Below are positions 5,501 to 26,449 of a stretch of DNA of 64,000 nt, piece after piece. The first letter of the stretch is position 1; the number at the start of each line of letters is the position of its first letter. Below the pieces are notes generated by a model. That model was not told the origin of the DNA. It saw nothing but the letters and a program-made list of their open reading frames with translations, and did no database searches. The stretch comes from Amphiscolops sp. MND2022 (taxonomy: Eukaryota): assembly GCA_964187785.1 (NCBI GenBank), contig OZ076409.1, positions 57,104,001 through 57,168,000 of the forward strand, in the 5' to 3' direction. Made by a program: the position numbers and the translations under genes.

Positions 5501-7299
5501 TCATAAAATGTTACCGGAAATAAAAATTAGGCAAATTACTTTTTTTGATTCCTTTTGGGCAAAAAGTGGTTTCCTAGTCACAGGCGTACTTTTTGAGGCA
5601 ATTTTTGTCACTGAGAAAATGGCAAACAGCTTGGAACTAGGTCTTTTGCAAAATTGGGAAAGTTGAGCGATCCCGAATCGTTATGTTATCGCACATAATT
5701 TCACCAGAAGTGCTTAAAATTGGAAATAGGTTTGACAACTGTGAGGCCAATTTGAGGAATTTATCTAACATGAATCTACAGATGCCTCTTCAAAATTAAA
5801 CCTACTGGACACCGAATTTAACTTTTGTTTAATGTTTACACCATTCTAACCCACGAAATAGTTCAAAACGTTTTCCATTGGAAGGGTACTCCTTATCTAG
5901 TGACTTTGCTTTAAAGTTTTCGAATATTAAAAATCGGACAAATGAGGTCGAAACTTACGTTTTCAAGTAACGTTTCTGAAGGTTGTGCAAATATACTTGT
6001 CTGATATCTTTTCGAAACACTAACGGTAGCTACACGTTTCAATCAATCTTGAGCCTATGATATTTCTCATTGAAGTAATGTTGCGGAAAGTGTCCAATAT
6101 TGGCACCATGTTGTCGAACGTAAAGAAAGTTCGGAATTTTTGACACCTTTGTCGTAAACTCTATGCTTTTCATCCCACTTTTCTCCCATTTGCGTTTTGA
6201 AAACTCTTTTGTTTAAAACGCTCAGGTCATTGGAAGTTATATTCTCTAAAAACTTTTGTGGTTTGAACAAAAATTAGGATTGGTTTGTCAAACAACGTGG
6301 TTTTTGTTTTTTCATGGATTTTTGGGTGTTTTTGAGGCCAATAGTAACAAAAAATGCAGTTATCTCTTCAAAGTTGCCGACTGAAAATACCCGAATTAGT
6401 AATTGTTGAGTTTTTAAAACCAAAATTTTAAAACCAACCATTTCAATTTTTTTAGTACTTGGGCCTTTCTGAGCAATCTTTTGACTAGAAACTAGGCATT
6501 TTTTGAAAAACGTGCTTCGAACCTAATTGTTATCTCGAGCTTTTCGAAGCCTTTATTTTACCGAAATTTTCTAATTTCAAATGAAAAGTTACTGGGAATG
6601 TCAGAAGTCGACAAAAATTTTGACCTTTTCCACTTTTCGCGGTCAATTTTCAGCCAGTTTTCAACAAAAGTCTGCAAATGTTCTTCAGAAGCCTAATGGA
6701 TTATGAGTTCCGTCTTTGCTTAACGTTTGCCAACATTCTGACTTCAAAACTAACCAAAAAGTACACTAGTTGCCCAAAAACAAAGATGTTGAAATTTTTC
6801 GACTGCTCTGGAGTCATTCTGAAGTTTTTTGAAGCAAAACACTGCAATGTTTCCTTCAATAAAAGTAAAGCATAGCTGGTTGTTTTGTTTTTGACTTGAT
6901 TTTGTGGGAACTTAGGATGAACTTTCTCAGAAATACTACAAAAATTACATCAAAAAAGGCAAAACCTTCAATTTTTTGACAATTCAGGTTAATTTGAGGC
7001 AAATTTCTTTTACAATTTGAACTTATCGCGAAACGAAAGCTCACAGAAACAACAACTTTGCCCATGCCTTTGGCGTTTTATTTTCTACTCCGCGAAGTTA
7101 ATCGATTTTTTGACGAAAATTCAACAAAAATAGTAAAAATCGGAAAATCTTCGAAATTATGTTCTGTTTTTGATGTCGAATCCGGACAGTTTTTGTTTGG
7201 AAAACTGCGTTTATCTCTTTTTACATATCTGAGCTTACTTATCTAAGCGTTTGAAAAACTGCTTTTATCTCTTTTTACATATTTAAGCATATTTATCTA

Positions 7300-8340
7300 A
7301 GCATACTGGACAACACATTTTTTTTGACACTTTTCAACGTTTCAATTGACGAAGTCTGTTGAAATTTTGGGAAAAAAAGCATAAAATCTTCGAAAATTGA
7401 AAAATTTTGAGAGTATTGTCATTTTCGGCGTTAAAGGGAGACATTTTTATCAAAACATTAAAATTGTGTATTCATAAAAGACTACTGGACAACCAACCAT
7501 TTCTTTGTTGACCCTTTAAAACATTTCAATCCACAAAGTCCTTCAAAAATTTGGAAAAAATGCAAAAAATCTTCGAAATTTGAAAAATTTTGAGATTTTT
7601 GTCATTTTTGGCGTCAAATTGAAACATTTTTTCCAAAACACTGCAATTATCTCTTCATAAAGACTACTGGACAACCAACCCTTCCCTTTTTGACCCTTTA
7701 AAACATTTCAATCCACAAAGTCCGTCGAAAATTTGGAAAAAAGCTTAAAATCTTCGAAAACTGAAAGTTTTGGAAATTTTAGTCATTTTCGGCGTCAAAC
7801 TGAGACATTTTCTTCTGAAACGTTGCAATTATCTCTTCATGAAAGACTATTGCACAACCAATCCTTTCCTTGTTGACCCCTTAAATCATTCCAATCGGTG
7901 TCAATTTGAGACATTGCAACTTAGAAAACTGTACTAAACTTTTCGGTAAAGCCTACTGGATACCACATTCTTTCCTTGTTGACCCTTATCATTGTTCCAA
8001 TCCACAGAATCCGTCAAAAATTTGGAAGAAGATGCGTAAAATCTCTGTAAAATGGACAGTTATTGAATATTTGTCATTTTCGGTGTCAATTTGAGACACT
8101 TTCAATTAGAGAAAGGCAATAACCTCTCCGAAAACGACTACAGGACAATCAACTTTTTCCTTGTTGACCCCTTAAAACATTCCTATTCACGAAGTCTGTC
8201 AAAAATTTGACGAAAAATGCGTTAAAACTTTGAAAAATGGAAACATTGGGGTTTTTGTCATTTTAGGTGTCAATTTGAGATTCTTTTCTTTTGGAAAACA
8301 GCAATTATCTCTTCGGGAAAACCTACTGGGCAATACTGTT
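7300..8340. repeat. Degenerate tandem repeat, ~180 bp unit, about 6 copies
   Basis: Recurring ACTACTGGACAACCAACC..TTGTTGACCC(C/T)TTAAAACATTTCAATCCACAAAGTC..GTCATTTTCGGCGTCAA near 7305, 7483, 7665, 7846, 7953, 8137 and 8322. Confidence 0.75.
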
Positions 8341-9815
8341 TTTTTGTCTTTTTTGGGTCTTTTTCTTTCCACAAAAAAACTTTTTCAACTTTCTATTCCA
8401 CAACATCTATCGTAAAATTGACAAAAACTGCATTAAAAAGTAAAATACTTGAAAGTTTTGCAAATTTTCTTTTCCTGGTGTCATTTTTGGCTCATTCTGG
8501 GGTCCTTGGGGTCAACCAAAAAAGTCCAGAAATCTCCACAAATACAAATCGCACGAAGCTAATTCTATGTGAGTTGAATTCTATGGGTAACACTCTTAAA
8601 GCTAAATATAAATTTGGTGCTTGGCAAATTTTGTGAAAAAAAACCGTTTGGTTTAAATATTTTCCTTTCCCATATGAAAGATGGGCGGAAAATTATAAAT
8701 TCATTATATTCACAACACTACTTTTTGTTCTTTCACTCACACATGGGTATAAAAAATGAAACTGTCAGCCATTTTTGGTAGGCGCTTCTTGACAGCAAAA
8801 CAGATTTCACACTGAAAGAACTAGAAAACATCCAGAACTTCTTTGATCTCCTCAAGGTTTTTCATGTGGTCAGTTCGAAATTCCCTAGGATCACCCTATG
8901 AATAGTTTTCAGCAGCGTAAAATTTTAAAGAATTCTAAACAAACAGCATACACAAGGAACCTCCTAGTGTTAGGTCTATCATATTTCAAAACAAGGCCAA
9001 AAAAATCAAAACTCGGACCCTAGGACTGTTTTTTGCACGTGTTTCCAAAATATAGAAATATTCAAAGGGATCTCAGATAACCAAAAAAGTATCTATCCGG
9101 ATTCGTTATATTCGAATTTTATGTTATATGTTTTTTATCAGAAGATGTCATCTCAATCGAAAAAAAAAGATGAGAAGTTTACCGTAAGCTAGACTGGAGT
9201 CCACGCCTTCCGTCAGATGAGAGACAAAAAAAACAGAAATGAAGAATTCTGCATTTGAATTTTTGACGTTATACCCGAATTATCTCAATTTATTTATGTT
9301 CTGTCCAAAAACGCTACTTACAGAGTGCAATCAGAACAATCAACCAGAGCGGCATTCAGACCCACGTCAACAGGACACCACGACTTCAACTGGAACATTC
9401 CATTGGCTGCCAAATTTATTTTATAAGTTGTAAAGTCTAAATTTTACGCACTTCATAAGAAACCTCACTAAAAAACGACTAACAGGGAGGAAATACTGCC
9501 ACAATACTGTGGTAAATTGGAAACGGAAATTCCGATGGACGATCGGACAAAATGCTATCACGTAAATGACGAACATGGCCAGGTTAAGCGAACCAAGTCC
9601 AATACATTTACGCAAGCTCTTGGCACTGTTTCGATTTTTCTTCAGAAATGAAATCAACGTGCAACATAGCAGAGCAGACTTTGACCTAAAACTTTGAGGA
9701 AATGCAGAATCAGCAGCGGAAGTTTAGAAACGTATCCTAGAGGTGGAAAATGTTTCTGAATTTGAGACAATAGTCGCAACCGAACAGTTAGCCTCGAAAT
9801 TCTTCTTATCTCTCA

Positions 9816-10277
9816 TTAGGGAGTCAACCGGTCAATATGAGTTAGAAAAAAATAGCCGGGAAGGACACAATCGGGGTCACATCTGTTACGACATGCTATC
9901 GAGTCGTTTTGAGATGAACTTATCCTCACTGACTTTGTAGGGGTATAAAAGTTTCTAGTTTCTTCTTCTACCTCTTCCTCAGTATTTTCCCTAATATTTC
10001 CCCTTGTTTCAGGTTTTAGTAGTTTCAACATCTCTCTCTGGGATTCAGCAAGAAGAGTCTTAATTTCCGATGTTATCTCATCTTTCAAGGATGCCCTTAA
10101 ACTCTCCAAGAAACTATTTTCAATCCGAGGAGATTTTGATCTGGAAGGACCCGACATGTCTACGTCCTGGTTTGAAGAACACGAATTTTCTACCACTATC
10201 GGAGAAATAAAACCTTCACTTACGTCCTTGTCGCCTTGTTGCTCATTCCTTCTTTTCTGACTTCTAGTTGTAGACAT
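9816..10277 (-). pseudogene. Duplicate of the gag N-terminus carried in the 3' LTR; runs out into flanking DNA
   Basis: Nearly identical to the first ~131 aa of the 24357 ORF (MSTTRSQKRR...IACRN), diverging exactly at the LTR end (9884). Confidence 0.9.
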
Positions 10278-12370
10278 TTTGAAGAAAAGTTTTATCTTGA
10301 AGAATTGATTTTTCCAAAGATAATTTTCAACAAAGTTAGCTGAGATTAGAGTTTAGCGAAATTGAGAATTCAACTGAATTAAACAATTGCAAAAGACTGA
10401 GTCCCTGAGTCAATGAAAATCATCCTATATATACCCTCCTAGCATCATTTGATCACGATTAAAATCCTAATTTTCCCCGAACAATTAGTCATTTCCTGTA
10501 TTTTCGATGAAAAAATCATTTTGTTCCCTATTTTACGTCGATAACTCGTCAATTTTTGAGACACGACAATTTCAATCTAACATTAGTCATCAACCACGAT
10601 CATATCATTTCAGCTCGGCGTCCTTTGCTTTCCTCCCAAGCAGGAAGTAGATATTACTTCAGTCTGTCAAACCGGAAATGATTCCCTGTTTTACTGCTTT
10701 GGTTCGTAGGAAAATGACGCTGAGATGACGCTGACGTGAACAACTAATACCTGATTTTGAATTTTTACTTGAAGGAAATGCTATGACTAATGTTTTCAGC
10801 TTTGGAATTTCCAATGATGCTAGGAAAAGTGAAGGCAAAGCTATGGAATTAGCTTCAATTTTTTGAGTTGAATTCCCAATTCAAATAAATAGTAATTAAA
10901 CCAAATTAACGTAACACCAACGTTTACATTAGAAAACTAGAATGATTTGGCAACAGCTCTTGGCTACTACAAAATTGGCTGAAAAAAGGTGGACGGAGCT
11001 ATGACGTACCAAAATCAAAGGTATTAATGAGTATGAATTTCATAATTGAATTCATTCGTACTCAAGTTTAAACTCTGACGTCTTAACGTCGTTGGACCGA
11101 ACTAATCAAGGTGAAACAGTCAGTTGCCAAAAATGGTATGAAAATGATCACAACGAGATGTATAAAACGACAACAGGCACAGTTGTATTGGGGGGAAACC
11201 ACGAACATGAATATTATAAAAATATGACCTCATTATTAAAATATAATCTTTGCCGGTTCATAGCCCACAACTTTCAGATACGTCAGATTGACGTCAAGTT
11301 ATACGCAATCATATTTATGGTCTGCTTCAAACAGCATAAAATGTACATTAATAGCATTCTCCCTTGGAATAAACTGTGACTTTAATTATGAAGAACATGG
11401 AAATCCTAATCGGATCATTTTACAATGTGATTCCAAAAGATTAGTATTTTTATTGACGGGAACAGGACGTAAATTATCAAGTTTTATCCTTAACCTCGTA
11501 GAGCTCTAAAACATCTTTAAACGTTTCCCTTCCGTCAAATCCGACATATTAATATTCATTCAACTGAATTGGATGGATTAAACCGACTATTTTGATGGAT
11601 TTCGGACGTAACGTGGACGTACGTATTAAGATTGGCTATAGACCGCCGGTATTGGACGTAACGCGGACGTAAATTTGAAGTAAGAATTAGTCTGCGCCGA
11701 GAAAGCAATACCGTGACGTCACTGTGGCGGAAAATTGGAATGATTTTAAGTAGTGTCACTAATATAGGCGGTAAATTGGAATGGTTCTCTAGTGAGCACG
11801 GACGGAACGGTGACGTCATATTATATACTTTCAAGTCTGCTTTTTACCGACGCCTAATATACATGTATCCTTTATTTTGTTTACCTAGCGCAGTGCCGAC
11901 GTCCTAATCCGCACTAATTGCTGTTCAAAGTGCAATTAAGCCGCCTTTCTTAGAAAAGGAGTATATATTTCAGTGTGTCATCTCAATGTACTTTCTATTT
12001 TAGATCCAGATAATGTCCTTTTTCCAGTGGTGATTTTGGGTATATTTTCGTTTAGATCGGTCTATGGTCTTTATTTCAAGACGCATACTTAATTAAGCTT
12101 TCAGGTGGCGAATGTTTCCATTTTGACGAAATGAAAACGTCCTGCCGGAAGTGTGTGAAATCATTTTGGTTCATTTTAGTTTCTGTTCTCATTTTCATTT
12201 AAACTTTGCGCAAGTTAGACGTATTTTTAGTCACAGTTTATCCTAACATTAGTATGAAAGTTCGAGTCAGTAGCCAAAATACCTTTTCGAAAGTTTCGCT
12301 GTACAGCCGTGTCCTCGTCCGAACCCAATCCGCCTACATCCACAATCCAGTCCGGGAGCGGACTGTGACA
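9884..12370 (-). repeat. 3' LTR of element A (2487 bp)
   Basis: TGTTACGACA...ACTGTGACA on the + strand; matches 23964-26449 except about a dozen differences seen by eye. Confidence 0.96.
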
Positions 12371-13031
12371 GGGCCACTGTCATGGGTCGTATAACTCTCC
12401 CGGGTTGACAAAACTGGAACGGCTGATATTGATTGTTTTCCTTGTCGTCTCCTGGAGTACGTTTCGTTGTCGCTGGCTGTATTGGTGCTTGCTTTTCCAA
12501 GTCATTTAGTGGGCTAATCGGACGTGGAATTACTCTCTTCAGTGGGCCTGGGGGTGTCTCGAAAAGAGAAATATTGTCTTCTTCCCTGTGGATTTCCTCC
12601 AAATATTCGTTGATAATGCAGCTCGTGATCGATTGTGGGCTTGGTGCACGATGTCCTTCCACCACGAACACGTCAGGGTTCGATTTATTGTCGTCCTCTT
12701 CCTGTTCATCCGGACTGTCTGGACTCTCTTTCATTGAGCTGTATTCGGACTTCGGCGAAGCGTTGTTAAGTTCTCCTGATTCTAGGGATTCGAAAGACGA
12801 ACTCAGCCGCATTCTCTTGCAGTCCGCTTCTAACGAGTCCGCCGAGATGTCGAAATACTCTTCTTCGTCAGCTACTGCTCTGGCGGATGAATTTGAAGCA
12901 TTTAGGATGACTCTAATATTGGGTAGTGGCCCACTGGGAAGGGGAGTTGATGATCTCTCCGACGCCTCTGTTCCGTCTTCACTATCTGACGAGATGTCTA
13001 TTAGCTCGTATATTTCCAGTAGATGGGTCAT
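12267..13031 (-). CDS. Element A ORF3: acidic Ser-rich disordered protein with SIM-like motifs, overlapping the 3' LTR
   Basis: ~254-aa ORF from ATG 13031 (frame open further upstream to ~13150). Contains LIDISSDSED, YFDISADSLE and DVFVVE; the last ~34 codons lie inside the LTR. Confidence 0.6.
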   Translation of the reverse strand: MTHLLEIYELIDISSDSEDGTEASERSSTPLPSGPLPNIRVILNASNSSARAVADEEEYFDISADSLEADCKRMRLSSSFESLESGELNNASPKSEYSSMKESPDSPDEQEEDDNKSNPDVFVVEGHRAPSPQSITSCIINEYLEEIHREEDNISLFETPPGPLKRVIPRPISPLNDLEKQAPIQPATTKRTPGDDKENNQYQPFQFCQPGRVIRPMTVALSQSAPGLDCGCRRIGFGRGHGCTAKLSKRYFGY

Positions 13032-13099
13032 TTTCTTCAAGAAATTCTTTCTTCCTTTGCAGCGGACTTTTATCTTTGATTGTTCTTCAATGAATTCCG

Positions 13100-13500
13100 G
13101 ATTAATTAGGATTAAGGAGAATATTGGTATAAATCCCTCTATTCTGATTGGCTATTCAATCATTTTAATCCTTTTCAATCCTCAGGTGTTGACGTTATTC
13201 CGACGCCGTTTTTATTGGCTGCAAATTGAATTAATCCGCTTAGCCAAGATTGTCAACGTTATGCTGACGTCATTTTCGTTAGCTTAACTAACTTTTGTTT
13301 TGTCACCGTTATGATGACGTCATTATAGGTTATAGGATTAATAACCCAATAACCTTTTTGTCGACGTTATGCCGACGTCAATTTCGTTGATTTTTAATCA
13401 ACTTTTTGGTACTGACGTTATGCCAGCGTCAATTTCGTTGGTGGCTTACCAACTTTAAGTTTTGTCACTGTTATAATGACATCCATTTTGGTTGTTGTCT
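13100..13500. promoter_or_regulatory. Putative internal bidirectional promoter with degenerate tandem CRE-like repeats
   Basis: Lies between the divergent ORF3 (-) and the spliced gene (+). About 6 copies of TGTC(A/G)ACGTTATG(C/A)(T/C)GACGTCA.TTTCGTT at 13188-13490, and ATTGG (CCAAT) motifs near 13123, 13148 and 13214. Confidence 0.45.
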
Positions 13501-13540
13501 TCATCTTCGGGTTTGTTTTCAGATTCTGAGCTATTTGACG

Positions 13541-16500
13541 ATGGATTCACGTCCCACTGTCTCTTCAGTTGATCCCGGAGCCCAGAGTGGTCACGAGACT
13601 CAATACGTGTTCTCGGAGGGAGACATGCGTCAGAGTGACGCGGATGACATTCGACCTCGGGCTGTTGGTGAGTATTTCATTCCCTGATCCATTAAGCTTT
13701 TGTGAATAATACTACTATCAGATAGGCCTTTTTCTGATTCATATTTTCACAGCTTAGATTTTCTTGACGCGTCGATGCTGGGAATGTACCTTTTCTTTTC
13801 TAGAGCCCAAGGTGATTGCTACTCCTCCTGCTGGTGCTGAAGTGGGCGTTCCTCCTGCGACCATTTCTCCTGTGACGCCTTCTGCTGAGCTCGAGAGTGT
13901 TCCTTGTGGGTCGTCTGCTGCTGTCCCTGGTGGTGGAGAAACCCCTGTCGCGTCAGGTTCGAGGCCTGACGTCAATCTTACGGGCTTGCTCTCTGGTTCT
14001 CCTTGCGGAGGCGAGGTAATAACCCCCACCGGAGAGAAAGATGACGTCTTCGGGGCGGAATCTTCAGGAGCTGGGATCCTTGGGCAGACCTCCAGCTCAC
14101 CTCAATTGACTCCTTTCCTGACTGGGTTCGGGCAAACGTTCGGTGGAGTGACGCCTTCCGAATCCAGGAAAAGAGGTAAGGTTGATATATTTTGTTCGGT
14201 CTCGAGGTATTTCCCTGTTTGATTGTTTTGTGATACATGTTGACGTTATAGTTGCGTCCACTGCTGCAGAAAGGGCCGGGACAGGCTCATCTGGAAAAAA
14301 GAAGCGTCAGGTGCGCGTGCAGACGGCGAATCTGCAACTCGCGCAGCTTACTGTGAGCGGTAATAAAATTTTTCATTCTTGGGTGTTGGTTAGGCTATTA
14401 GATAGGCTATTCGAATGTGACTTTGGTTTGTTTCGTAGAATCTGGAGATTGTGCCGCTCAAGGGATTTCTGGTGCTAGTGACTTGGACGTGGCCCGGGCG
14501 GAGCCTTCTGGAGTTGGTCCCGTACTAGCAAGTGAGTATACCTTGTCATGACTGTAGTCGTTATCTGTATCACGTTGAAGTGGGTTCTGTAGTGTACATC
14601 TAGGCATTTGTTAGTTGTGGTAGTTCTGTAGGTATAGTCTGGTTAGTGCTAATCCGTCGTTATGTCGTTTTGTAGGAATGCAAGATCTGGTGTCTCGGAT
14701 GGAGAGCAGTTTGGAGGCGGTTGCTTTGCGTGAGACCCCCGTCAAGAAATACAGCAGCCGTCATCATCTGCGAAAAGATATGGTGGGGGACCATCCCATC
14801 TTCAGTCTGTTCGTCAGTGGGGTCAGCGACGGGTCGGCCACTCGCTTCCACTGCATTATTTGCAAGCGGGATGTCTCCATGCAGTCACGCGGGTCGAGAG
14901 AGTTCGTCCGACACTACTCCGGCGATCGCCACTGGATTCGAGATGTGACCTACCGGGTTCAGCAAGGTCTACCAGTGTTCGATCAGCTGATGAAGCCTCT
15001 CGAGCTGACGTCAGACCAGCGGGCCGAGTACCTGGGTCGAGATGCAGTGGAGAAAGGCGAGGGGTTCAGTTTCCCTGAGGACTTGCTGCCGTCTTGTACT
15101 CGGGTGGACTCGACGATTCCTCTGCTGACAATGGTGAACTGTGTGGCAGAGCTGTGCAGATGGGGTGGTAGTTACGTTTTGCTCCGCAAGCTGTGGGGCA
15201 ACTTCCGTGCCACTCTGGGGCGGACAATCCCCTATACAATCTCCACTGGAATCGTCCTGAGACACTGGTTAGTAATCCTCATAGAGATGATTTGTGTTGT
15301 TTTCCTTCATCAATGTGTCTTGCTTTTGTGTGTGGACGTCTTGTGGTCGGCGTAGGCGGGTTTGTGCATCTGTTGAGTGAGTTGATGCGTTTGTGTCTTA
15401 GTCGTTGATTTGTCGTGCTCTCTTTCCTCGGGTCCTGCGCTCCATCATTTCTCGCGTGACGACCTTCAACTGCTACAGTGTGCGGTTTGAGGAGCATGCC
15501 GATGGCCAGTACTGCTTCGTTTCGACTTGGGAGGGCAATACTTTGCTGGACGTCTGCATCAATGTCGAGCCCTTGGGTCAGCGAGTGCCCCAGTCTGAAC
15601 TGTCGTCATTGTCGCGCATTGTCACTAGTCTGTCCTCAGCTTCCCTCCCTATCAGCATTCGTGGTGCCAGTCCATCCTTCCTGCGGGTAGTCAACGACGA
15701 ACGCAGTGACGGGCATCGTTTGGTGTATGCTCGGGAATTCTCCTCTGATGTGTTCCTCCACTGCTATCGAATTGCCCATCAAGAGATCTTCGGGATGTTA
15801 GAAGTCACCACCATGGTCGACTTCTTGATGGTGCGTCTTCGTGGGGCTTTGCAGGAGCCCTGGATGGAGGACCTTCCCGAACTTCGCCGTTGTGTGGTCG
15901 TCGGACAGGTGACGTTCGCCGAACTGCGTGGTGTCGTGGCTGAGCTGGTCTCCATTTGGGACACTGTCCGGGAGTACGTTCGGTACACTGGTCCCCGACA
16001 CATCAAGAGCGAGGCTGACAAGGTGGGTATAGTTTTGTTTCAGGGAGCTGTTTTGTATTCTTGCGGTGGGGTGTCGTCTCTCTGTGGGTTGGCGAAAATA
16101 GTCATCTTGTTGTTGCTATTTAGATGCGAGGCACATACACGCTCGTCTACTCCGAGACGACAAACAAACTGCGACTGGGAATGCTGCTGCACGTTCTGGA
16201 TCTTTGTAAGTTGTACTTTCTTGTGACTTTCTTTCGTTATTTTTGGTTTTTTGGTCGTTTTTTTTCTTTTTTTATCGTAGCAGCTCGTTTGGTATGCTAG
16301 GTGGCTGATCGTCGTCGTCATCGGGTTGTCGTCTAGGTATCATAGTCTTGGTAATATGTGTACAGCCGTCTGTTGTGTTTAGATCATTGCACTTTCGTCA
16401 AACAGAAGACTGGACGTAGTGATTACGCCTTTCATGCCTACAGTGAAGTGTGTCAGTTCGTGTACTGCTTGCTCGTCCGCAGTCGTAAGGTGTCCAGTCT

Positions 16501-17701
16501 GCCTGCTCTCAATGATTGGGAGTCATATATGGATCCCAGCAAATTGCAAGCGTTTGAGAAAATCAGCACTGACGATTTCTTACAGAACTACGAGTTTGGA
16601 GCTGAACTACATCGTTCAAACACTGGTGAGGCGCGTGAGTTCCGCAATCGTTGTCGGGAATTTGTGGACCGGCTGGTGGACGTCATCTTGGATCAGCAGG
16701 TTGTGTCCTCGGATTTCTTCCAGGGGTTGTATTGCTTTTGCCCTGAGCTGCTTCTTGAGGGCGACGACCAGCATGTCTTTCAGTTGTTCTCTCGTCTGGT
16801 TCGCGTTCTTGAGCGATGTGGCTGTCTTTCCAGCAGTGATGCACAGTCGAGTCGTGAGGAGTTCGCCACATTCGTCGTCGATGCTAGGACGCGTCATCAG
16901 GAGTCAGAGCGAAGTGCGGAGCAGATCGAAGATGTTACTGAGTATCTGCTTTCGGACTACAGTTTCATGTCACGGAGAAGCCTCGTCCGGGTATTGAAAG
17001 TGTGCTGCTTGGTAGTGGATCGCCCTCGCAGAAAGATGCCTGACATTGAAATTGATCTGAAAGACTGTGCCGTTCCTGTTTCCGTCGTGACGTCGTCTCT
17101 GAGGAGCGTCCAAAGTCTTGTGTCTTCTCCCGGGTACAAGCAGGGTGCTTTCTTCACTCAGGGAACTATGGAAAGTGTTCGCAATGCCATAGCCAGCAGT
17201 CGGAGTTTCATGTCTTGTGCCAGTTTTGACCCTTGGGAGAGTGTGTCATGTGGCGGTCGTTCGGCCTTTGTGCGTCAATACTCTTCAGCCTTTGATGCTT
17301 ATCTGAGCCGCAAGAAAAGTGAGGCCACGAAGCAACTTCATAGTGCCAACCGTCAGCCGCGCCAAGTTCGTTTTTCGGAGTCTGGTGGTTCAGGCGGGTC
17401 AAGTGTTTGCAGTTCTCCTCGTGGTGGTGTGCTGCCTGCTACCTCATTTGCCATTTCTTCTCCTGTGTCTGGTTCCGATGCTGGGACGTCAAGGCAACGT
17501 ACCTATACTGCTGAGTCTTCCTTGGCTGCTATTCTTGGGCAGAAAAAAGAGCTGAAGCCCGTCAAGAAGACGTGTGTTGGTAAGAAAGAAGCAGGAAATA
17601 AAGGCGCAGAAAAAGAGTCCTCTAAAGATCAGTCACACGAGGAGCCAAAGAGTGCGAAGTCGATTGGAAGACGGTTGAGTCCTAAGTCCAAGAGTCACTG
17701 A
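13541..17701 (+). CDS. Antisense 8-exon gene inside element A; ~1104-aa hAT-transposase-derived protein (C2H2/BED-like finger, degenerate DDE); one 1-nt frameshift in this copy
   Basis: Exons 13541-13667, 13804-14175, 14252-14359, 14439-14531, 14676-15267, 15402-16022, 16124-16205, 16383-17701. All 7 introns are GT..AG and phase-compatible once one base is restored in the G-run at ~15217-15220. Motifs: CIIC..RHYSGDRH, YSVRFEE, FRNRCREFVDRLVD..LYCFCP. Confidence 0.8.
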
Positions 17702-17993
17702 GATGTGTAGTCGAGACTTGATACAACTGTTGTTGTTAAACTTTAGTAGTAGTCTTTTGTGCTTCTTTTATTGCAGCCTTTATTTATTTGATTGTAGTCG
17801 TTGCCTTTTGGCTATTTTTATTTTGATGGATTTTAAAATTAACTGATAGTGATGGACTCCCCAGCAAAATAGTAGAAAAGAAATTGGAGTCGAAGAAAGA
17901 AAAAAAAATCAAGAAAAAGAGGCCGTAGTATGCCAGTAATTAAAGTCGTCAGGTCGGTTCGATCTGGACACTTGATAGTGCTCTTTTCCCTTT

Positions 17994-20900
17994 CTATTGA
18001 GTCTTAGTGATAGCGTCAAGTCTTCTAAAGTCAGGATTAGTATTGGGTTTAGGATTAGGTCGTAGATTGTATTTCGCTATTTTCCTTGGATTATATCCAA
18101 CTATTGTAGGCGGCGATTTTGGGGAATAGGTGGGTCTTCAATGGGTGGGGGGCGTCGTATATATGGATTATCCCCCAGGTCTGTAGTAAGATTTGAAAAA
18201 TCCGGTGGTGGCGGCGCTTTGTCGTCCGTAGTTTCAGGTTCCTTGTCCAGTATTTGTTGCGTCGCCGTTTCGTCCTGCGTGTTCGCTACCTCTTGTGTAA
18301 CTGGTTGTTGATGATTGTTTTCATTTTCTCGCGACTCATGCTCGTCGATCTGTTTCCCGAAATCCATTTCCCATGAGACTGCGTACCACTCATTGTGTGA
18401 AATTTTGACATCTGGATCGGGAAGGTAATTGTCGGCTCGTACTGTGACGTCGGGCAAGCGTTGTTCTGGCACGTAAGGTCGTATGCGAATTCTGTGTAGT
18501 GTTTGTGTATATCGTGTGCCAAGTTTGCGTATTGTGTAGTTTTTATTGGAAAGGTCTTTGATCACTATGTACGGGCCAGTCCATATGCAGTCTTGGAATG
18601 CAAACTTCGTCGACTGGTTGTCGGCTTTCGGATTGAGTATGTAACAATAATCGTTGATCTTCAGTGGAGCTGCAGACGCTTTGCGGTTGTAATATTTTTT
18701 ATATTTGAGGTAGGATAGCATTATATTGTCCTTCGCTGTCGCTCGTACCTCGTCTATTTGTTTTTGTAATTGCTCTGCTATGTCCGAGTTGGGCGTTGTT
18801 TTCCATTTTGGCTTGATCCCCAATTTTAGGTCGAGGACATTGTAGGGTATTCGTCCGTGGAATACTGTAGATGGTTCACAGCCCAGAGTCTCGTGGTATG
18901 TTGTATTGTAGTTCATTACAGCTATTTGGACATACTTGTGCCACATTGAACGTCGTTCACCCGTCGAAATTTTTAGTGCGGTTTTGATTGACGCGTGTGT
19001 TCTTTCTAAAATTCCGATCGTCTGTGCATGTTTTGTAGACGCATGGCTGATTTGAATCTCGAGTATTTGGGCTATTTCTGTGACGACTTCTGATCGAAAT
19101 TGTGAGCCCTTGTCTGATAGGATTAGTGTTGGCAAGTATGCATGTCTTGTCATAACGTCGACAATGCATCGTCCGATTGTTTTCGCTGTGACGTTCTGTG
19201 TTGGATATGCAAATAGGTAGCGTGAAAATACGTCGATCATCGTAACGATGTTCTGGTATCCTGCAGAGCTTGGCAAATTTGGTAGTATGTCAATTTCAAG
19301 AATGTCCTCCGGACCAAGGACGTGTTCCGTATTGTTGATCATTTTCGGTCTGATTTGGCTGTTGTTGATTCGTTTGTATTTGATGCAGTCTTCACATTGC
19401 ATTACCCACTGTCTGATTCTTTTTGCTAGGCCGGGGTAATAGTACTTTGATCGGCATTCTTGAATCATTTTGGTAATCCCCGGGTGTTTTCCCATTTGTC
19501 CATGTATTGCCTTCAAGAGTTCTGTAACCAAGTGTTCAGGAATTAATATTTGGTGGTGGGTAACTTGTCCGCATTCGCCGTAGTACTTTCGCATTAATAC
19601 TCCATCTTTGACGATTAGTCTGCTTTCGTGGACTAGGAGGCGTTTGGCCGTCGGATCAGTTTGTAATAGGTGTTTGTCATAATCTTCAGAAATCAGTTTC
19701 TTTTTGATTGCTTTGAAAACTAGGTTTGAATCTTGTTCGACTCTGATGCGAGCATCTTCTTTTATTGCTCCAAAGGTATAAGATGCTTTATTCATTGGAA
19801 TTGGGGTGGTTTCTTTGATGGCTAATTTAATTTTGGACGTCTCCTCGTCGCGCGCATTTTGTCTAGCTTGTTCCTTTTGCAGTAGGATTTCTTCTTCTGT
19901 TTCAATTGTTTCATCCGGAAGGAAGAAAAGCTGTTCCTCATCCGCGACGTCCGTAGATTGGAGATTCACTTGAATGGGCCTGATTGTAATGTCCTCTCTT
20001 ATTTTCAATTCAACTCGTTCTTTGGGGGTAAGTTCAATGCGTGATAAGAAATCAGCCGCAGTGTTTTGCGTACCAGCGACGTGCATTATGTGGAAGTTGA
20101 ATTGTAGCACATAGTCACACGCGTTCCACAGCGTAGGCGGTATGGCTTTTGTTTGAAAGAAGCGTGTGACTGACCTGTTATTGGTCATTACGAGTGTTGG
20201 TAGCGTCGCTTCCCACAATATATGGCTGTATTCTAGAAATGCATGGTAAATTGCTAGGAATTCTTTGCAGTAAATAGACATTTTTAGTTGAGCTGGGGAA
20301 AATACTTTCGATCCGAATGCGACCGGCGCAAATGTCTTCTTTTTTGAATTGAGTTTTTTGTCGTTGTTTTCCTCAATCATTAGTGCGTAGCCGGAGGCTC
20401 GTTAACTGGCATCCGTCATCAGGACGTACTGTCGTCCTGTGATTGGTTGTTTGAGTGCTAAACCGCAAGCTTGCGCCAGTGCTGCGTTGATAGCTTTGTA
20501 GTGGTCAAGTAATTCTTCTGTGATTTTGATTTGTTTGTCTGCTTTCAACAATTCATAGAATCCAAGTAGTTTTTCAGATAATCGCGGGATGTAATTGCGA
20601 TAATAATTGACAAAACCAATGTATCTTTGTACCTGCTTTTTTGACTTTGGAAATCGTACATTTGCCAGAAATTTTTGTATTTTATGGTCTTGGGGGGCAA
20701 TTCCTTGTGGAGTGATTGTTCTTCCGAGAAATTCAACCTCAGTCACCCCGAAATGGCATTTTTCTATGGTTAGTTTAAGTCCCGCTTGTCTGATGCATTC
20801 GAAAACGGCTTTGATGTTACGTATCAGTTGCGTCACTGAATTGGCTGCGATCCCAATATCGTCCACATATTGTGCGCACTGGTCGGCTTTGATCAATTTG

Positions 20901-22930
20901 TCTAAGTATTCTCTCATGAAACTTGAAAATGCCGACAGAGCCCTGCTCAGTCCTTGTGCTAAACGTCTGTAGGCAAACGTCCTGCTTGCGAAGTTAAACG
21001 CCAGCATTTCAATGGATCTTTGATCTGCCATTTGTAAGCAGTGGTATGCTTGAGAGCAGTCTAATTTGCAAAATAGCTTTTTACCAGCTAGGTGTTGAGC
21101 CGCATCTGACAGGGTGCTAACTGGATGGTTATTGTTGATGTAGTCATCTGAGATTAGTGCGTTTATTTTTCGCAGGTAGACAAGTAGACGCAATTTGCCA
21201 TTTGGTTTCCTCTGTGCGAAAATTGGGCTTGCATACTTTGAAAATGGTAGGGTCGTTATTATGCCGTACCTGTGCATTAGCGCCAATTCGACTGTTAGGT
21301 CTTCTTTCAAATTGATTGGTACCGGCAAACTTTGCGTGTAAATCGGACGCTCATCTTTCGGAGTTAATTTGACTTTGAAGCTATTGTTGATTCCAATGTC
21401 AAGGCGGTGACGCGCAAAAATGTCGTTGTATTCGATTATTGTTTGTTCAAGTTGCTTCCTGTCATTGCCTTCGATTTGGGAGCCTTCCCACTGGAACATG
21501 TCAAGGAATTTTTGTCTCGATTCTGGGTCTTTAGTTGGATCTAAGTTTTCCTTTTGGATGAGTTCACGGATTTCCTTCAAGATCCGACGTTGGATTGGCG
21601 TATGTTCTTCTTCGTTCCCTGGATTCTCGGGTGTGGGGAACCAGAGATTTTCATCGCTTTGTTCATGTTCATTTGATTTCATAAGTTCGTTGATGTACAT
21701 GTGTGTGTCATCAGGATCTTCTAACAATTTGAGTGCGGCGGCGTCAACTGGTCGTATTTGTTTCGTGTCCTCAGGTTTGAGGATTTGTAGTTCTGCCAGC
21801 TTTGTATGATTTTTTATTGTATGTGGGAAATCCGTTAGGTTGGCGATTCTGATTTTGAGCCTTTTGTTATGGGCTGTCGCCAGGGCTGGTGCGACAATGA
21901 TTGTTGCTGTTTCGTCAAATTGTGGTAGTGGTTGTACCGCACCAGTGACGTCGTGCATGTTTGTGGTTAAGACTATTGCGTTTACTGTTGTTGTCTGTTG
22001 AGGCGGCAGTGTCTGATGTCCTTCTGCCATTATTTGAAGCGGTTTTGGGTTGCATTTTTTCATTTCGTCTGTCATGGCTAACGTCATTTCGACGTGCGGG
22101 AAATTGATGGTTCCGTTGGCAGTGTCAATTACTGCTTGATGGTTTCTCATGAAGTTCAGTCCTATGATAGGGAATGACGTTTTCGATAGGATGACGAAGG
22201 TATCCGTGAAGGTATATGTTCCAATATTGAACTGGATGTCCGCTGTGGCTATTGGTTGTTCTAGTTGTGCATTTGCGCATTCGATCTTGAAGGGGGGTTG
22301 AGGGTATTCTTTTATGACACAACTATCACTGTTCATTTTGATTGTGTTATAATCTGACCAGGACATGGCATTGATGAACGCGCCTGAGTCGACAAGTCCA
22401 TCCATTGTTATCTCGCCAAATTCGAGTGGCAAGTACAGCATTCTCCTTCTATTCTTGAGGACTATGGTGGAGTGGAGGGGTATGTATGTTTCTCCATCTT
22501 TTTCAGTAACATACTCTTTGATAGAGTTAAGAGATGTGGGGAAATCCTCTGGGAAGATAGGTGCTTGGGTGGAGCCGTAGGTATCTTCCTTTGTCTGTGT
22601 TGACGATGGTTGGTCGTCGAGGGTGTTTTCGGTTTGTTCTGTTTGGGTTATGGTGGATTGTGTTGTATTGGTGAGGGGTGGCTGGATGAGAAGATTTGGA
22701 TGTTGTTTGTGGTCGTCTCCATGATCCTCATCTTGTGTCAGTTCCTTTTCGGTTTGTATGAGGGGTCTTCGTATGGAAGCGAGTGCTTGACGTCTCAGCC
22801 AGTCCTCTGTTGGAGTTCCGTCGCATTCTACAGTTGTTTCGTTGGTGTATGTAGTAGGGGGATCATTTGGTGAATACGCCCTCGCGTCTACTGTTTCCCC
22901 GAAGCGCAGGCGCGGCGTATCTAGTTTTTT
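17994..22930 (-). pseudogene. pol: Element A pol (protease, RT, RNase H, integrase), entered by -1 frameshift; lightly damaged
   Basis: LVDSGA protease; YVDD RT; RNase H TDAS interrupted by in-frame TAA at 20402-20404; HHCC (H..H..CEDC) plus D-D-E integrase. A frameshift near 18120 separates the KYNLRPNPKPN tail, which ends at TAG 17994-17996. Confidence 0.93.
22872..22930 (-). other. Programmed -1 ribosomal frameshift signal (A AAA AAC plus downstream stem-loop)
   Basis: Heptamer 22930-22924 lies immediately before the gag TAG. The -1 frame is stop-free into the pol ATG at 22441. Downstream AUACGCC...GGCGUAU stem with inner GCG/CGC pairs. Confidence 0.85.
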
Positions 22931-24357
22931 GATTCAATGACAGAGTTAGCTGTCGTTGGTTGGGCGGGAACGTCCCTTTTTGATTCCGAGTTATTGTGAC
23001 GCTTAGGTCGTGGATCGTTGGCAGAGTTGGCTCCATTCCAACAATCTTCCGTTTTGTGGGGTTTGCCGCATGTGTCGCATTTAAGCGACTTGCCTGCACT
23101 AGAGTTGGTTTGACCATTGTTCTTCCTGATCTGCATCCATTTGTCTCTCTTCATTTTCCTACATTCCGCTTTGTAGTGTCCAAATTTGTTGCAGTAGAAG
23201 CAATATCCTTTTTTGACATTTTGCGTCGTGCTGTCGACTTGTTTGGACTCAGTTTTTGTTGGGGCCGGTTCTACTTTATTTAGTGGTACCAGTGATACTT
23301 CATCTGGCGCTCCAAGGCCGTTAAGCCTCATTTCTCTTTCCAAGTGTAATACAATGTCATTATATGGCTTGTCTTCGAGATACGCCCTGTTTAGTATCTT
23401 TTTTACATGGTCTGGCATTTTTGCGTATATTACCTTGTCAATGAATTGTTGGGCTTCAGATCCGAAGGCTTCTTTGGCCGTTTTTTGAAGTACGTCTAGA
23501 AATTCATGGAGTTTCTGGTTCGAGGGGTCAAATCTGAGTGCATCCCATTCACATCTTGCTTTGGCCGTAGACAGGTAGTCCCCGAAACGTCGTTTGAATA
23601 TCGTCATTATTTCATCAAGGGAATCTTTTTTCGCGTCTTCTATATTGCAAAACGCCTGGAGGGCGTCTCCTCTGAGTAGCGAGTGGAAATAGTTAATCTT
23701 CTGTATTTCCGTGAGATGGGGATACATTTTTATGTTGTTGCGGAAAAGGTCTTCGAATAACTCAAATTTTTCCGATTTCCCGTCGAACGTTGGGAGAGAT
23801 GCCGTTAGCGCCTTTGGCATGGGCAGTGTAGTGCTGTCACCTTTTTCCGATGTAAACAGGGTCCTTGCCACAACTGGACGTTCTTTTGACGTTGGCTGAC
23901 TTTGGGACCGGGCTTTCGTTTTTTTAGATTGGTTAGTGGAGTCGGTTAAAACTCCTGTCACCATGTTACGACATGCTATCGAGTCGTTTTGAGATGAACT
24001 TATCCTCACTGACTTTGTAGGGGTATAAAAGTTTCTAGTTTCTTCTTCTACCTCTTCCTCAGTATTTTCCCTAATATTTCCCCTTGTTTCAGGTTTTAGT
24101 AGTGTCAACATCTCTCTCTGGGATTCAGCAAGAAGAGTCTTAATTTCCGATGTTATCTCATCTTTCAAGGATGCCCTTAAACTCTCCAAGAAACTATTTT
24201 CAATCCGAGGAGATTTTGGTCTGGAAGGACCCGACATGTCTACGTCCTGGTTTGAAGAACACGAATTTTCTACCACTATCGGAGAAATAAAACCTTCACT
24301 TACGTTCTTGTCGCCTTGTTGCTCATTCCTTCTTTTCTGACTTCTAGTTGTAGACAT
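22921..24357 (-). CDS. gag: Element A Gag (478 aa) with two Zn knuckles; initiates inside the 5' LTR
   Basis: LPTFDGKSEKFELFEDLF capsid-like start; CFYCNKFGHYKAEC and CDTCGKPHKTEDC knuckles; intact ORF. Confidence 0.93.
   Translation of the reverse strand: MSTTRSQKRRNEQQGDKNVSEGFISPIVVENSCSSNQDVDMSGPSRPKSPRIENSFLESLRASLKDEITSEIKTLLAESQREMLTLLKPETRGNIRENTEEEVEEETRNFYTPTKSVRISSSQNDSIACRNMVTGVLTDSTNQSKKTKARSQSQPTSKERPVVARTLFTSEKGDSTTLPMPKALTASLPTFDGKSEKFELFEDLFRNNIKMYPHLTEIQKINYFHSLLRGDALQAFCNIEDAKKDSLDEIMTIFKRRFGDYLSTAKARCEWDALRFDPSNQKLHEFLDVLQKTAKEAFGSEAQQFIDKVIYAKMPDHVKKILNRAYLEDKPYNDIVLHLEREMRLNGLGAPDEVSLVPLNKVEPAPTKTESKQVDSTTQNVKKGYCFYCNKFGHYKAECRKMKRDKWMQIRKNNGQTNSSAGKSLKCDTCGKPHKTEDCWNGANSANDPRPKRHNNSESKRDVPAQPTTANSVIESKN
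23951..23963 (-). other. Primer-binding site of element A (TGGTGACAGGAGT; resembles a tRNA-Leu-type PBS)
   Basis: TGG-initial sequence directly abutting the 5' LTR terminal CA. The tRNA identity is unverified. Confidence 0.75.
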
Positions 24358-26449
24358 TTTGAAGAAAAGTTTTATCTTGAAGAATTGATTTTTCCAAGAT
24401 AATTTTCAACAAAGTTAGCTGAGATTAGAGTTTAGCGAAATTGAGAATTCAACTGAATTAAACAATTGCAAAAGACTGAGTCCCTGAGTCAATGAAAATC
24501 ATCCTATATATACCCTCCTAGCATCATTTGATCACGATTAAAATCCTAATTTTCCCCGAACAATTAGTCATTTCCTGTATTTTCGATGAAAAAATCATTT
24601 TGTTCCCAATTTTACGTCGATAACTCGTCAATTTTTGAGACACGACAATTTCAATCTAACATTAGTCATCAACCACGATCATATCATTTCAGCTCGGCCT
24701 CCTTTGCTTTCCTCCCAAGCAGGAAGTAGATATTACTTCAGTCTGTCAAACCGGAAATGATTCCCTGTTTTACTGCTTTGGTTCGTAGGAAAATGACGCT
24801 GAGATGACGCTGACGTGAACAACTAATACCTGATTTTGAATTTTTACTTGAAGGAAATGCTATGACTAATGTTTTCAGCTTTGGAATTTCCAATGATGCT
24901 AGGAAAAGTGAAGGCAAAGCTATGGAATTAGCTTCAATTTTTTGAGTTGAATTCCCAATTCAAATAAATAGTAATTAAACCAAATTAACGTAACACCAAC
25001 GTTTACATTAGAAAACTAGAATGATTTGGCAACAGCTCTTGGCTACTACAAAATTGGCTGAAAAAAGGTGGACGGAGCTATGACGTACCAAAATCAAAGG
25101 TATTAATGAGTATGAATTTCATAATTGAATTCATTCGTACTCAAGTTTAAACTCTGACGTCTTAACGTCGTTGGACCGAACTAATAAAGGTGAAACAGTC
25201 AGTTGCCAAAAGTGGTATGAAAATGATCACAACGAGATGTATAAAACGACAACAGGCACAGTTGTATTGGGGGGAAACCACGAACATGAATATTACAAAA
25301 ATATGACCTCATTATTAAAATATAATCTTTGCCGGTTCATAGGCCACAACTTTCAGATACGTCAGATTGACGTCAAGTTATACGCAATCATATTTATGGT
25401 CTGCTTCAAACAGCATAAAATGTACATTAATAGCATTCTCCCTTGGAATAAACTGTGACTTTAATTATGAAGAACATGGAAATCCTAATCGGATCATTTT
25501 ACAATGTGATTCCAAAAGATTAGTATTTTTATTGACGGGAACAGGACGTAAATTATCAAGTTTTATCCTTAACCTCGTAGAGCTCTAAAACATCTTTAAA
25601 CGTTTCCCTTCCGTCAAATCCGACATATTAATATTCATTCTACTGAATTGGATGGATTAAACCGACTATTTTGATGGATTTCGGACGTAACGTGGACGTA
25701 CGTATTAAGATTGGCTATAGACCGCTGGTATTGGACGTAACGCGGACGTAAATTTGAAGTAAGAATTAGTCTGCGCCGAGAAAGCAATACCGTGACGTCA
25801 CTGTGGCGGAAAATTGGAATGATTTTAAGTAGTGTCACTAATATAGGCGGTAAATTGGAATGGTTCTCTAGTGAGCACGGACGGAACGGTGACGTCATAT
25901 TATATACTTTCAAGTCTGCTTTTTACCGACGCCTAATATACATGTATCCTTTATTTTGTTTACCTAGCGCAGTGCCGACGTCCTAATCCGCACTAATTGC
26001 TGTTCAAAGTGCAATTAAGCCGCCTTTCTTAGAAAAGGAGTATATATTTCAGTGTGTCATCTCAATGTACTTTCTATTTTAGATCCAGATAATGTCCTTT
26101 TTCCAGTGGTGATTTTGGGTATATTTTCGTTTAGATCGGTCTATGGTCTTTATTTCAAGACGCATACTTAATTAAGTTTTCAGGTGGCGAATGTTTCCAT
26201 TTTGACGAAATGAAAACGTCCTGCCGGAAGTGTGTGAAATCATTTTGGTTCATTTTAGTTTCTGTTCTCATTTTCATTTAAACTTTGCGCAAGTTAGACG
26301 TATTTTTAGTCACAGTTTATCCTAACATTAGTATGAAAGTTCGAGTCAGTAGCCAAAATACCTTTTCGAAAGTTTCGCTGTACAGCCGTGTCCTCGTCCG
26401 AACCCAATCCGCCTACATCCACAATCCAGTCCGGGAGCGGACTGTGACA
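23964..26449 (-). repeat. 5' LTR of element A (2486 bp)
   Basis: Direct repeat of 9884-12370; followed on the minus strand by the PBS. Confidence 0.96.
24474..24512 (-). promoter_or_regulatory. Putative LTR core promoter (TATA plus initiator)
   Basis: Minus-strand TATATATAG at 24512-24504 and TCAGTC Inr-like motif at 24479-24474, about 120 nt upstream of the gag ATG. Confidence 0.55.

Follow-up and report, generated by a model that had tools for sequence, protein, structure and literature searches.

Apparent capture of a catalytically dead hAT transposase as an antisense accessory gene of a Ty3/Gypsy retrotransposon lineage

Results and Discussion

Structure of the Locus

The window, that is the whole stretch of 64,000 nucleotides analysed, contains an element with the features of the Ty3/Gypsy group (LTRs, a short target duplication, a PBS, and gag followed by PR-RT-RH-INT). 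The insertion is young, with LTRs 99.5% identical and a 5-bp target duplication. Between the integrase and the 3' LTR, antisense to gag-pol, lies an additional gene, referred to below as the cargo. The features of the element and the motifs of the cargo are the following.

9879..9883, no strand: target-site duplication, 5 bp, left copy (identical 5 bases at 26450-26454)
9884..12370, minus: 3' LTR, 2487 bp (against 23964-26449: 99.48% identity, 12 mismatches, 1 gap)
12267..13151, minus: orfX, second accessory ORF, in gag-pol sense, diverging from the cargo; probable ATG near 13031
13152..13540, no strand: putative divergent internal promoter of orfX and cargo
13541..13667, plus: cargo exon 1, containing the ATG (gene model)
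13804..14175, plus: cargo exon 2, low complexity, fast-evolving (gene model)
14252..14359, plus: cargo exon 3, with a basic stretch (gene model)
14439..14531, plus: cargo exon 4 (gene model)
14676..15267, plus: cargo exon 5, with the C2H2 finger of BED type (14846-14932) and the N-terminal hAT region for DNA binding/dimerisation
14846-14932, plus: finger motif FHCIIC...GDRH, in exon 5
15402..16022, plus: cargo exon 6, RNase H-like fold, both catalytic Asp sites apparently lost; insertion domain begins
15474-15503, plus: cargo motif YSVRFEEHAD
15651-15671, plus: cargo motif ISIRGAS
16124..16205, plus: cargo exon 7, insertion domain (gene model)
16157-16201, plus: cargo motif TTNKLRLGMLLHVLD
16383..17701, plus: cargo exon 8, remaining insertion domain and a C-terminal region in which no catalytic Glu is conserved
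16637-16690, plus: cargo motif EFRNRCREFVDRLVDVIL
16727-16744, plus: cargo motif LYCFCP
16979-17014, plus: cargo motif SLVRVLKVCCLV
18101..22933, minus: pol, with protease, RT, RNase H and integrase in Gypsy order (domain matches)
22921..24357, minus: gag, starting within the 5' LTR and overlapping pol in a different frame
23945..23963, minus: PBS-like sequence starting with TGG and adjoining the 5' LTR
23964..26449, minus: 5' LTR, paired with the 3' LTR

The cargo gene comprises eight exons on the plus strand, from an ATG at 13541 to a stop at 17701 preceded by a basic low-complexity tail, and seven GT-AG introns. An earlier sequence-only reading had placed it at 14676..17300; this segment is real and represents the 3' part of a longer gene. 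The motifs quoted there were all found on the plus strand at the cargo positions given above, and the N-terminus of about 230 residues is in agreement with the 233 codons of exons 1-4. The GT/AG boundaries of introns 6 and 7 were retained in 19/19 other copies and those of introns 4 and 5 in 16/19 each; for introns 1, 2 and 3 the counts were just 12/19, 11/19 and 10/19, in a region of poor alignment. Independent support for the splice model of the core comes from the colinearity of exons 5, 6 and 8 with a natural intronless homologue of 861 amino acids (P0212). The introns survive reverse transcription because the gene is antisense.

The window copy is broken. Exon 5 carries a one-base frameshift near 15220, as judged against the sister copies L021 and L022, and pol contains a premature stop at 20402-20404 which was absent from the five copies checked; both lesions had been overlooked by the earlier reading. 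A host gene carrying an insertion was ruled out, the gene being multi-copy and enclosed by LTRs and a target duplication, and an env-like ORF by the antisense orientation and the hAT fold described below.

Relationship to hAT Transposases

Sequence searches did not place the protein. No Pfam match was obtained for the cargo in a search of the window exons, nor for 27 homologues or P0212, and 11 copies of exon 5 gave three weak, unrelated families only. Four profiles searched against PDB sequences gave unrelated proteins at best (E 0.05-0.7). The homologue searches listed only ENA proteins that carry neither a name nor a Pfam domain and point to no donor hAT clade, a further search covering 150 of its 635 hits; no longer homologues of exon 8 and no relatives in viral contigs were found.

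An AlphaFold model of P0212 (pLDDT 83) retrieved the Hermes hAT transposase at Foldseek ranks 1-10, with a best E of 1.7e-5. A VIA comparison with Hermes gave Z 13.7 and rmsd 5.2 over 397 aligned residues, as compared with Z 5.4 for the next unrelated entry; the match begins at residue 170-207 of P0212 and covers Hermes 136-609. The C-terminal region of the model aligns up to Hermes 609, without a Pfam match for the PF05699 dimerisation region. For the model of window exon 6, Hermes occupied ranks 1-4 (E 6.5e-3; Z 5.9, rmsd 6.6, 176 aligned) and was the sole row covering the whole exon. Both models contain an RNase H-like core with a large Hermes-like helical insertion. As a lead only, ESM Atlas language-model neighbours (scores 0.93, with recognition under threshold, and 0.86) listed FAM200/GTF2IRD2/ZBED5/KIAA0543-like clusters; 23 of the 30 Atlas neighbours belong to a set in whose best cluster 60% of members carry PF05699. 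A hAT origin, as first proposed from family motif patterns, is well supported by these predicted structures.

Similarity to the free hAT ORFs tested from the same genome was not detectable: hmmsearch of the cargo against these ORFs gave a best E of 0.47, and hhalign against a profile of six free hAT sequences a probability of 0.1%. PF14291 had no match in the host genome, and none in controls either. Around the window copy of the cargo three inverted 11-mers were found, against 0-8 in 10 shuffles, and none of the three is flanked by an 8-bp target duplication.

Catalytic Residues and the BED-Type Finger

The catalytic triad of Hermes is D180, D248 and E572 (PMC2533014). The corresponding registers were placed in the cargo from aligned ranges and strand order, not by residue-level superposition; counts cover 49-51 copies, and acids were also scanned independently of register. 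Asp was present in 0/49 copies at either inferred Asp column, the second being occupied by Gly in 48/49. No Asp was found on or after strand 4 in 14/14 family representatives. In the Glu segment acids did not exceed 7/14 representatives at any column, and the expected Glu-helix position showed neither a conserved acid nor a helix; the ERx[FW]S motif was missing from the last exon, as had been remarked for the terminal ERxFS Glu. The Trp of the TRW motif and the CxxH motif are conserved features of hAT transposases. In the cargo the inferred Trp column was Phe in 50/50 copies, and there was no CxxH within columns 320-338. All six free hAT ORFs examined from this genome, by contrast, share invariant D, D, W and E (6/6). 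Loss of the DDE triad throughout the cargo family, suspected earlier from the window copy, is strongly supported by these alignments. Neither outcome named beforehand as refuting a dead hAT origin, a lack of similarity to the hAT fold or an intact triad with homologues in free TIR-flanked transposons, was observed.

The protein might still be a nuclease or strand-transfer enzyme with a rearranged active site. Glu occupies the first Asp column in 27/49 copies, column 243 is acidic in 10/14 representatives, and several acids at other positions are invariant (D576, E608 and E470), in registers that are inferred, not superposed. Set against the missing Asp and Glu-helix acids, the Phe at the Trp site, and the lack of TIRs and of an 8-bp duplication, such an activity is very improbable.

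The finger is well preserved, its ligands C72, C75, H92 and H98 being kept in 49/49, 48/49, 47/49 and 49/49 copies, and R91 and E88 in 48/49 each. The C-x2-C-x16-H spacing and the Arg preceding His match Hermes C51/C54/R70/H71, whose helix lies in the DNA major groove (PMC10368747). The BED assignment is by motif only, the finger having no Pfam zf-BED match and lying outside the structural match. The finger (0.49) and the N-terminal domain (0.50) are the most conserved parts by mean identity, versus 0.33-0.41 elsewhere.

Distribution and Selection

The cargo is arranged tail-to-tail with integrase in 50/50 loci picked by the cargo and in 20/20 elements picked by RT. Among the 50 loci sampled there was no stand-alone copy. 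Copies are spread over all 13 large contigs. Position and orientation are unchanged in three clades sharing just 24-47% cargo identity, and the same arrangement occurs on a metagenome contig from another source (L154); the other six of seven metagenome loci (1.2-3.8 kb, no gag/pol match) are too short to show neighbours.

Across nine pairs with dS >0.9, dN/dS was 0.05-0.13, with 8 of 19 pairs not computable owing to saturation. Purifying selection on the cargo lineage is well supported by these ratios. A neutral passenger, in the sense of a hAT element that inserted into one LTR element and multiplied along with it, is likely as the origin event, and the frameshifted window copy, with dN/dS 1.0 against L021 at dS 0.013, fits it. 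For the lineage this explanation is scarcely tenable and is refuted by the low ratios between subfamilies, the conserved splice sites and the constant placement across the three clades and the second source; it is valid just for post-insertion decay of single copies.

Because of this fixed position, the purifying selection and the absence of TIRs and a target duplication around the gene, the cargo is taken to have been domesticated by the retrotransposon, as the earlier reading had supposed. Taking origin, selection and catalytic loss together, it is very probable that a hAT gene was captured, lost its DDE triad and was kept as an obligate gene. An ancestral Ty3/Gypsy element would have taken up the transposase gene in the interval from integrase to 3' LTR, in antisense orientation; the DDE chemistry would then have been lost, with the complete fold and the BED finger retained and the gene kept as an obligate accessory.

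Possible Function

Upstream of the cargo, short repeats rich in TGACGTCA/ACGTCA lie at 13191-13456, inside the putative promoter. ACGTCA/TGACGT preceded the BED exon by 1.2-1.6 kb in 20/20 regions, versus an occurrence in 12/69 flank windows, and may be no more than a host bZIP site; the tandem-like repeats are confined to the window's clade. The orfX product is acidic and Ser/Pro-rich, with an IDISS motif close to its N-terminus and no Pfam match.

The account preferred here, given somewhat less than an even chance once function is included, is that the captured dead hAT protein binds DNA and serves its own element as an activator or as an anti-silencing factor. An internal promoter common to orfX and the cargo would drive transcription, and the cargo transcript would be spliced. 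With the BED finger and the DNA-binding domain of the hAT part, the nuclear protein may recognise short LTR or internal-promoter motifs, and acidic or low-complexity arms would activate transcription or oppose host silencing of cognate copies in trans, on the model of TnpA and VANC in plant DNA transposons. Activation of cognate copies by transposases and their dead derivatives has precedent (bioRxiv 10.64898/2026.08.24.746577).

Selection on the RNase H and insertion scaffold is as strong as on the finger, which exceeds the needs of a simple DNA-binding factor and counts against an activator. Strong selection on the complete scaffold, including these DNA-cradling domains, would suit an integration cofactor that, bound to cDNA ends, target DNA or integrase, serves to tether, import or steer the pre-integration complex. 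The cargo's presence in every RT-picked element points the same way, allele swapping (see below) agrees with binding to a surface of a conserved integrase (mean identity 70% for INT versus 41% for cargo), and PMC13547354 models TnpA as a cofactor of the transposase. Such a role is nevertheless unlikely: the cargo would form a separate antisense transcription unit and therefore offers no hint of particle packaging, the target duplication is the usual 5 bp, and copies occur on all large contigs.

Among 43 pairs of near-identical RT backbones, 15 bear cargo alleles with no more than 52-65% identity. When the cargo allele is swapped within the window's clade, the backbone keeps its LTR end, orfX, promoter and promoter repeats; between the window and L032 orfX is 95% identical and the cargo 56%. 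Deeply diverged alleles are exchanged as cassettes between near-identical pol backbones. Because these alleles share a backbone while LTR end, orfX and promoter stay put, allele and target site are not in tight co-evolution, unlike VANC, which co-evolves with its target repeats (PMC5735166); this also counts against the activator.

Coexistence of many deeply diverged alleles on one backbone is expected under balancing or frequency-dependent selection. It could reflect a self/non-self factor that represses or excludes competing elements, or caps copy number, acting on other alleles or, through poisoned multimers, on free hAT transposons, which are present in the genome (150 Pfam matches scored). 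This is improbable, since the cargo has no detectable similarity to the free hAT ORFs tested and pol homogenisation by recombination could produce such a pattern even if the cargo were under no selection. A cognate toxin-antidote pair of orfX and cargo was ruled out, as the two genes swap independently.

A fuller version of the preferred activator/anti-silencing account, in which both genes form a module on one divergent promoter, is doubtful. Here the dead hAT protein would act sequence-specifically on its own element's DNA across the whole Gypsy clade, a disordered partner with a SUMO-interaction-like motif would oppose host silencing, and an arms race with the host would drive the exchange of divergent transposase alleles as cassettes.

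Comparison with Known Systems

The cargo shares with Hermes the fold and with hAT transposases the domain order (a finger, by motif, followed by the N-terminal domain, RNase H, the insertion and the C-terminal region), but only about 10% sequence identity with Hermes, and it lacks the DDE residues. Unlike hAT transposons it has no TIRs or 8-bp duplication and is mobilised by an LTR retrotransposon. In position, orientation, conservation and presence in most copies it resembles the aORF-3R, the antisense additional ORF between pol and 3' LTR. Reviews describe such ORFs as of unknown origin and function; they show no similarity to other TEs, hence a nested-TE origin is unsupported (PMC7264820). 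Grande provides a precedent for an aORF with its own promoter and a nuclear protein (PMC7264820, PMC11963269). The cargo differs from aORFs in that its origin is traced to a DNA transposase, it has up to eight exons, and a second divergent accessory ORF lies alongside.

Spm TnpA, which is transposase-derived, and VANDAL VANC are, like the cargo, element-encoded, non-catalytic accessory proteins that plausibly act on cognate copies, but they serve DNA transposons, whereas the cargo serves an element of the other class. TnpA has only its DNA-binding domain in common with the transposase of its own superfamily, whereas the cargo is a near-whole transposase; VANC is MAIN-related, so the analogy with the hAT-folded, putatively anti-silencing cargo is purely functional. 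The host-domesticated FAR1 and MUSTANG have likewise lost catalytic residues and kept DNA binding under purifying selection, and the hAT-derived DAYSLEEPER is listed as a further host-domesticated transposase. For these three the domesticator is the host, and for the cargo a multi-copy retrotransposon lineage. Bdelloid LTR retrotransposons with a captured enzymatic ORF3 (PMC5408684) are likewise animal Gypsy elements with fixed captured genes requiring sensitive searches, but their ORF3s are GDSL-like or DEDDy-like; the word 'transposase' is absent from the main text of that paper. No printed precedent for domestication of a Class II protein by a Class I element was found in the literature searched.

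Conclusions

The cargo would represent an antisense ORF whose origin is resolved: a transposase of Class II, domesticated by a lineage of Class I and not by the host. The route by which loss of catalysis turns a transposase into a transcription factor would thereby extend to element-on-element domestication. Direct tests are feasible, since the BED finger predicts which DNA should be bound and near-identical backbones carry many natural alleles. Pfam and sequence searches miss such a cargo; therefore, dead transposases may also account for further retrotransposon ORFs that lack an explanation. These results suggest that one kind of jumping gene has tamed the enzyme of another, most likely as a regulator.

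Host element and fixed position of the cargo gene

The following features were annotated in the window:

9884-26449, minus strand: Ty3/Gypsy element with LTR pair, target duplication, gag and pol
12267-13151, minus strand: orfX, second accessory ORF, beginning beside the upstream motif/promoter in 19 of 20 regions
13541-17701, plus strand: antisense accessory gene (cargo), eight exons and seven GT-AG introns
39031-58556, plus strand: second, unrelated LTR element with 417-bp repeats (96% identical), RT, integrase and many stops
59671-60681, minus strand: ordinary hAT transposase fragment (PF05699, E 7e-16)

The Ty3/Gypsy element has LTRs of 2487 bp with 99.48% mutual identity, a flanking 5-bp target duplication, a PBS-like site, gag, and a pol that encodes protease, RT, RNase H and integrase in that order and has a stop at 20402-20404 in this copy. 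The cargo and orfX sit back to back, with the integrase on one side and the 3' LTR on the other. The gag gene (22921-24357; LTR counterpart 9816-10352) begins about 390 bp within the LTR, so the PBS lies inside the gag coding sequence and the gag start is repeated in the 3' LTR; this start looks alike in the intronless clade and in the metagenome locus L154. No clear polypurine tract was seen immediately beside the 3' LTR (12371-12400). The density of GACGT was 9.7 per kb in the LTR (9884-12370) and 23 per kb at 13150-13540, with 0.6-1.8 in the flanks and the second LTR element. The latter contains a 2.5-kb internal duplication (42541-47506) and an ORF (52680-53468) matching PF24664, a viral fusion glycoprotein family (E 4e-17). 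Short tandem and inverted repeat arrays lie outside the Ty3/Gypsy element at 1894-2571, 7293-8347, 36872-38690 and 30693-31603, and comprise inverted 14-15-bp units, units of ~183 bp and ~420 bp, and a 400-bp duplication.

Five cargo queries returned at least 127, 125, 51, 97 and 124 matches in the same genome, in partly overlapping sets that were counted separately. When 1.84 billion representatives were searched with a profile, 635 matches had E ≤ 0.001, and the ten that were checked were all ENA proteins without a name. Fifty loci picked by the cargo were sampled over the full identity range, and in 50/50 integrase sequence was found tail-to-tail with the cargo; LTR pairs (98-99.9% identical) were present in the 10 long loci. 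One locus of this sample (L031) is rearranged and another (L072) retains the last exon only. In the reverse sample, 20 of 124 RT matches chosen as unrecognised from the cargo lists, all 20 elements carried the cargo, one (L131) with a partial deletion. The position of the cargo in the element is fixed. For the homologue P0129 no relative above 36% was present in the genome of the window among the matches listed, and its clade was found in seven metagenome loci. The only long one, L154, contains an orfX-like ORF, cargo and integrase (55% identity) laid out as in the window, and the arrangement thus reaches beyond a single genome.

Copies about 13.8-14 kb apart occur at G000:C149 10630-52892 and G000:C13 16515582-16554205 (both in the genome of the window), L045 and L154, suggesting tandem elements with shared LTRs. 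Two subfamilies in G000 hold many copies of equal score (537.1; 104.7), which suggests very recent bursts.

Structural relationship to hAT transposases

Pfam and PDB sequence searches with the cargo found no family, and its ESM Atlas neighbours, taken as a lead only, were hAT-derived clusters. The AlphaFold2 model of the intronless homologue P0212 (76-row alignment; pLDDT 82.9, pTM 0.72) gave Hermes chains at Foldseek ranks 1-10 (best E 1.7e-5). With VIA, model residues 201-698 were aligned with Hermes 136-609 (Z 13.7, rmsd 5.2, 397 aligned), the next unrelated entry reaching only Z 5.4. When exon 6 of the window copy was itself modelled (pLDDT 77.4), Hermes took Foldseek ranks 1-4 (E 6.5e-3); in a wide structure search Hermes came second (Z 5.9), level with generic RNase H-like folds, and was the only match listed that covered the whole exon. 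The models show a predicted hAT fold, and the hAT origin proposed in the sequence-only reading was borne out by these structural matches; the motifs quoted there were all found in the window sequence. No sequence similarity was detected between the cargo and the free hATs that this genome also contains, which points to an old capture or to a donor in a different hAT clade.

Catalytic residues

According to PMC2533014, Hermes activity requires D180, D248 and E572. The catalytic registers in the cargo are inferred, since structure comparison yields aligned ranges and not residue pairs. Cas9 RuvC ranges lay mostly at offset 232, by which D10 corresponds to model residue 242, where strand 1 ends; a second Asp would be expected after strand 4 (residue 300). 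Among 49 copies, column 242 was occupied by E (27 copies), R (11), V (five), L (three) or another residue (three) and never by D, and column 300 was G in 48. Scanning 14 family representatives without assuming a register gave no D at 294-304, D at 236-246 (a hairpin loop) in at most seven, and no position at 655-692 that was acidic in more than seven; within this last segment, residues 657 to 677 are modelled without a helix. The conserved Trp and the CxxH motif have roles in hAT transposases; the inferred Trp site was Phe in 50/50, and D, D, W and E were invariant in 6/6 free hAT ORFs of the same genome. Catalytic loss is strongly supported, and the earlier claim of a dead enzyme was right. 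Two observations speak against it: two clades have Glu at the first site, and several acids at other positions are invariant. It is very unlikely that the cargo is an altered enzyme. The cargo descends from hAT transposases, yet fails their defining DDE and TIR tests.

Conservation and gene structure

The finger ligands, E88 and R91 were present in 47-49 of 49 copies. The Hermes BED domain has a DNA-contacting helix, according to PMC10368747, and the cargo finger shares its spacing and the Arg before His. Conservation was highest in the finger (0.49) and N-terminal domain (0.50) and lower in the RNase H (0.38), insertion (0.41) and C-terminus (0.33), with RT at 0.83 and integrase at 0.70 for comparison. 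Of 19 pairs used for dN/dS, 8 were saturated; values were 0.05-0.13 in all domains in nine pairs with dS > 0.9, and 1.0 and 0.24 in two very close pairs. By these ratios the cargo is evidently under selection. That it is a passenger is extremely improbable.

Introns 6 and 7 were kept in 19/19 other copies, introns 4 and 5 in 16/19 each, and introns 1-3 in 10-12 of 19, in a region of poor alignment. A naturally occurring family whose core lacks introns (P0131, P0212) is colinear with exons 5, 6 and 8, to which it is 24-35% identical. The window copy is decayed, with a one-base frameshift near 15220. Intron content varies by clade, from none in the core of one to two or three in others (L041-L060; L061-L079; L151-L156), and the metagenome clade has an additional break near profile position 649; this is intron loss or gain within a retrotransposon.

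Upstream motif and orfX

The motif ACGTCA/TGACGT, which may be a CRE/bZIP site, was found 1.2-1.6 kb upstream of the BED exon in 20/20 regions, a range picked after the data were viewed, and in 12/69 flank and 5/14 pol comparison windows. In orfX, 11/19 versions have an (L/V)IDISS-acidic motif, which resembles a SUMO-interacting motif, and 11/19 a C-terminal ALSxxAPG-Cys-GRG motif. The seven orfX versions of the intronless clade gave no blastp match to other orfX; the orfX-like ORF of L154 has a comparable IVIIDSDS stretch.

Evolution and proposed function

Three large clades are common to the cargo and integrase trees, which fits one capture followed by co-divergence. Within clades, the alignments show exchange of the cargo as a cassette: L032, L033 and L037 share 92-94% DNA identity with the window on both flanks and ~65% or less across roughly 13800-17890. 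Among 43 (non-independent) pairs with RT third-position identity ≥0.93, cargo identity was <0.85 in 23 and <0.65 in 15.

The cargo would be transcribed from the internal promoter, and its protein would bind DNA in the nucleus and act on the element itself. Self-activation or anti-silencing of the element is the function that we tentatively favour. A role as an integration cofactor is possible, if rather unlikely, and one as an interference factor is improbable. By analogy, we think that the cargo may work like TnpA or VANC, plant transposon-encoded regulators, although it belongs to neither family.

The comparison literature comprised PMC7264820, PMC11963269, PMC5408684, PMC13547354 and PMC5735166. 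The literature searched yielded no description of an LTR retrotransposon lineage in which a hAT transposase has become fixed; Repbase, Dfam and supplements lay outside this scope and may hold prior annotation. The words 'LTR' and 'gypsy' are absent from bioRxiv 10.64898/2026.08.24.746577. The finding is real and of known kinds, an antisense accessory ORF and a transposase-derived regulator; its unusual aspect is the cross-class origin of the cargo.
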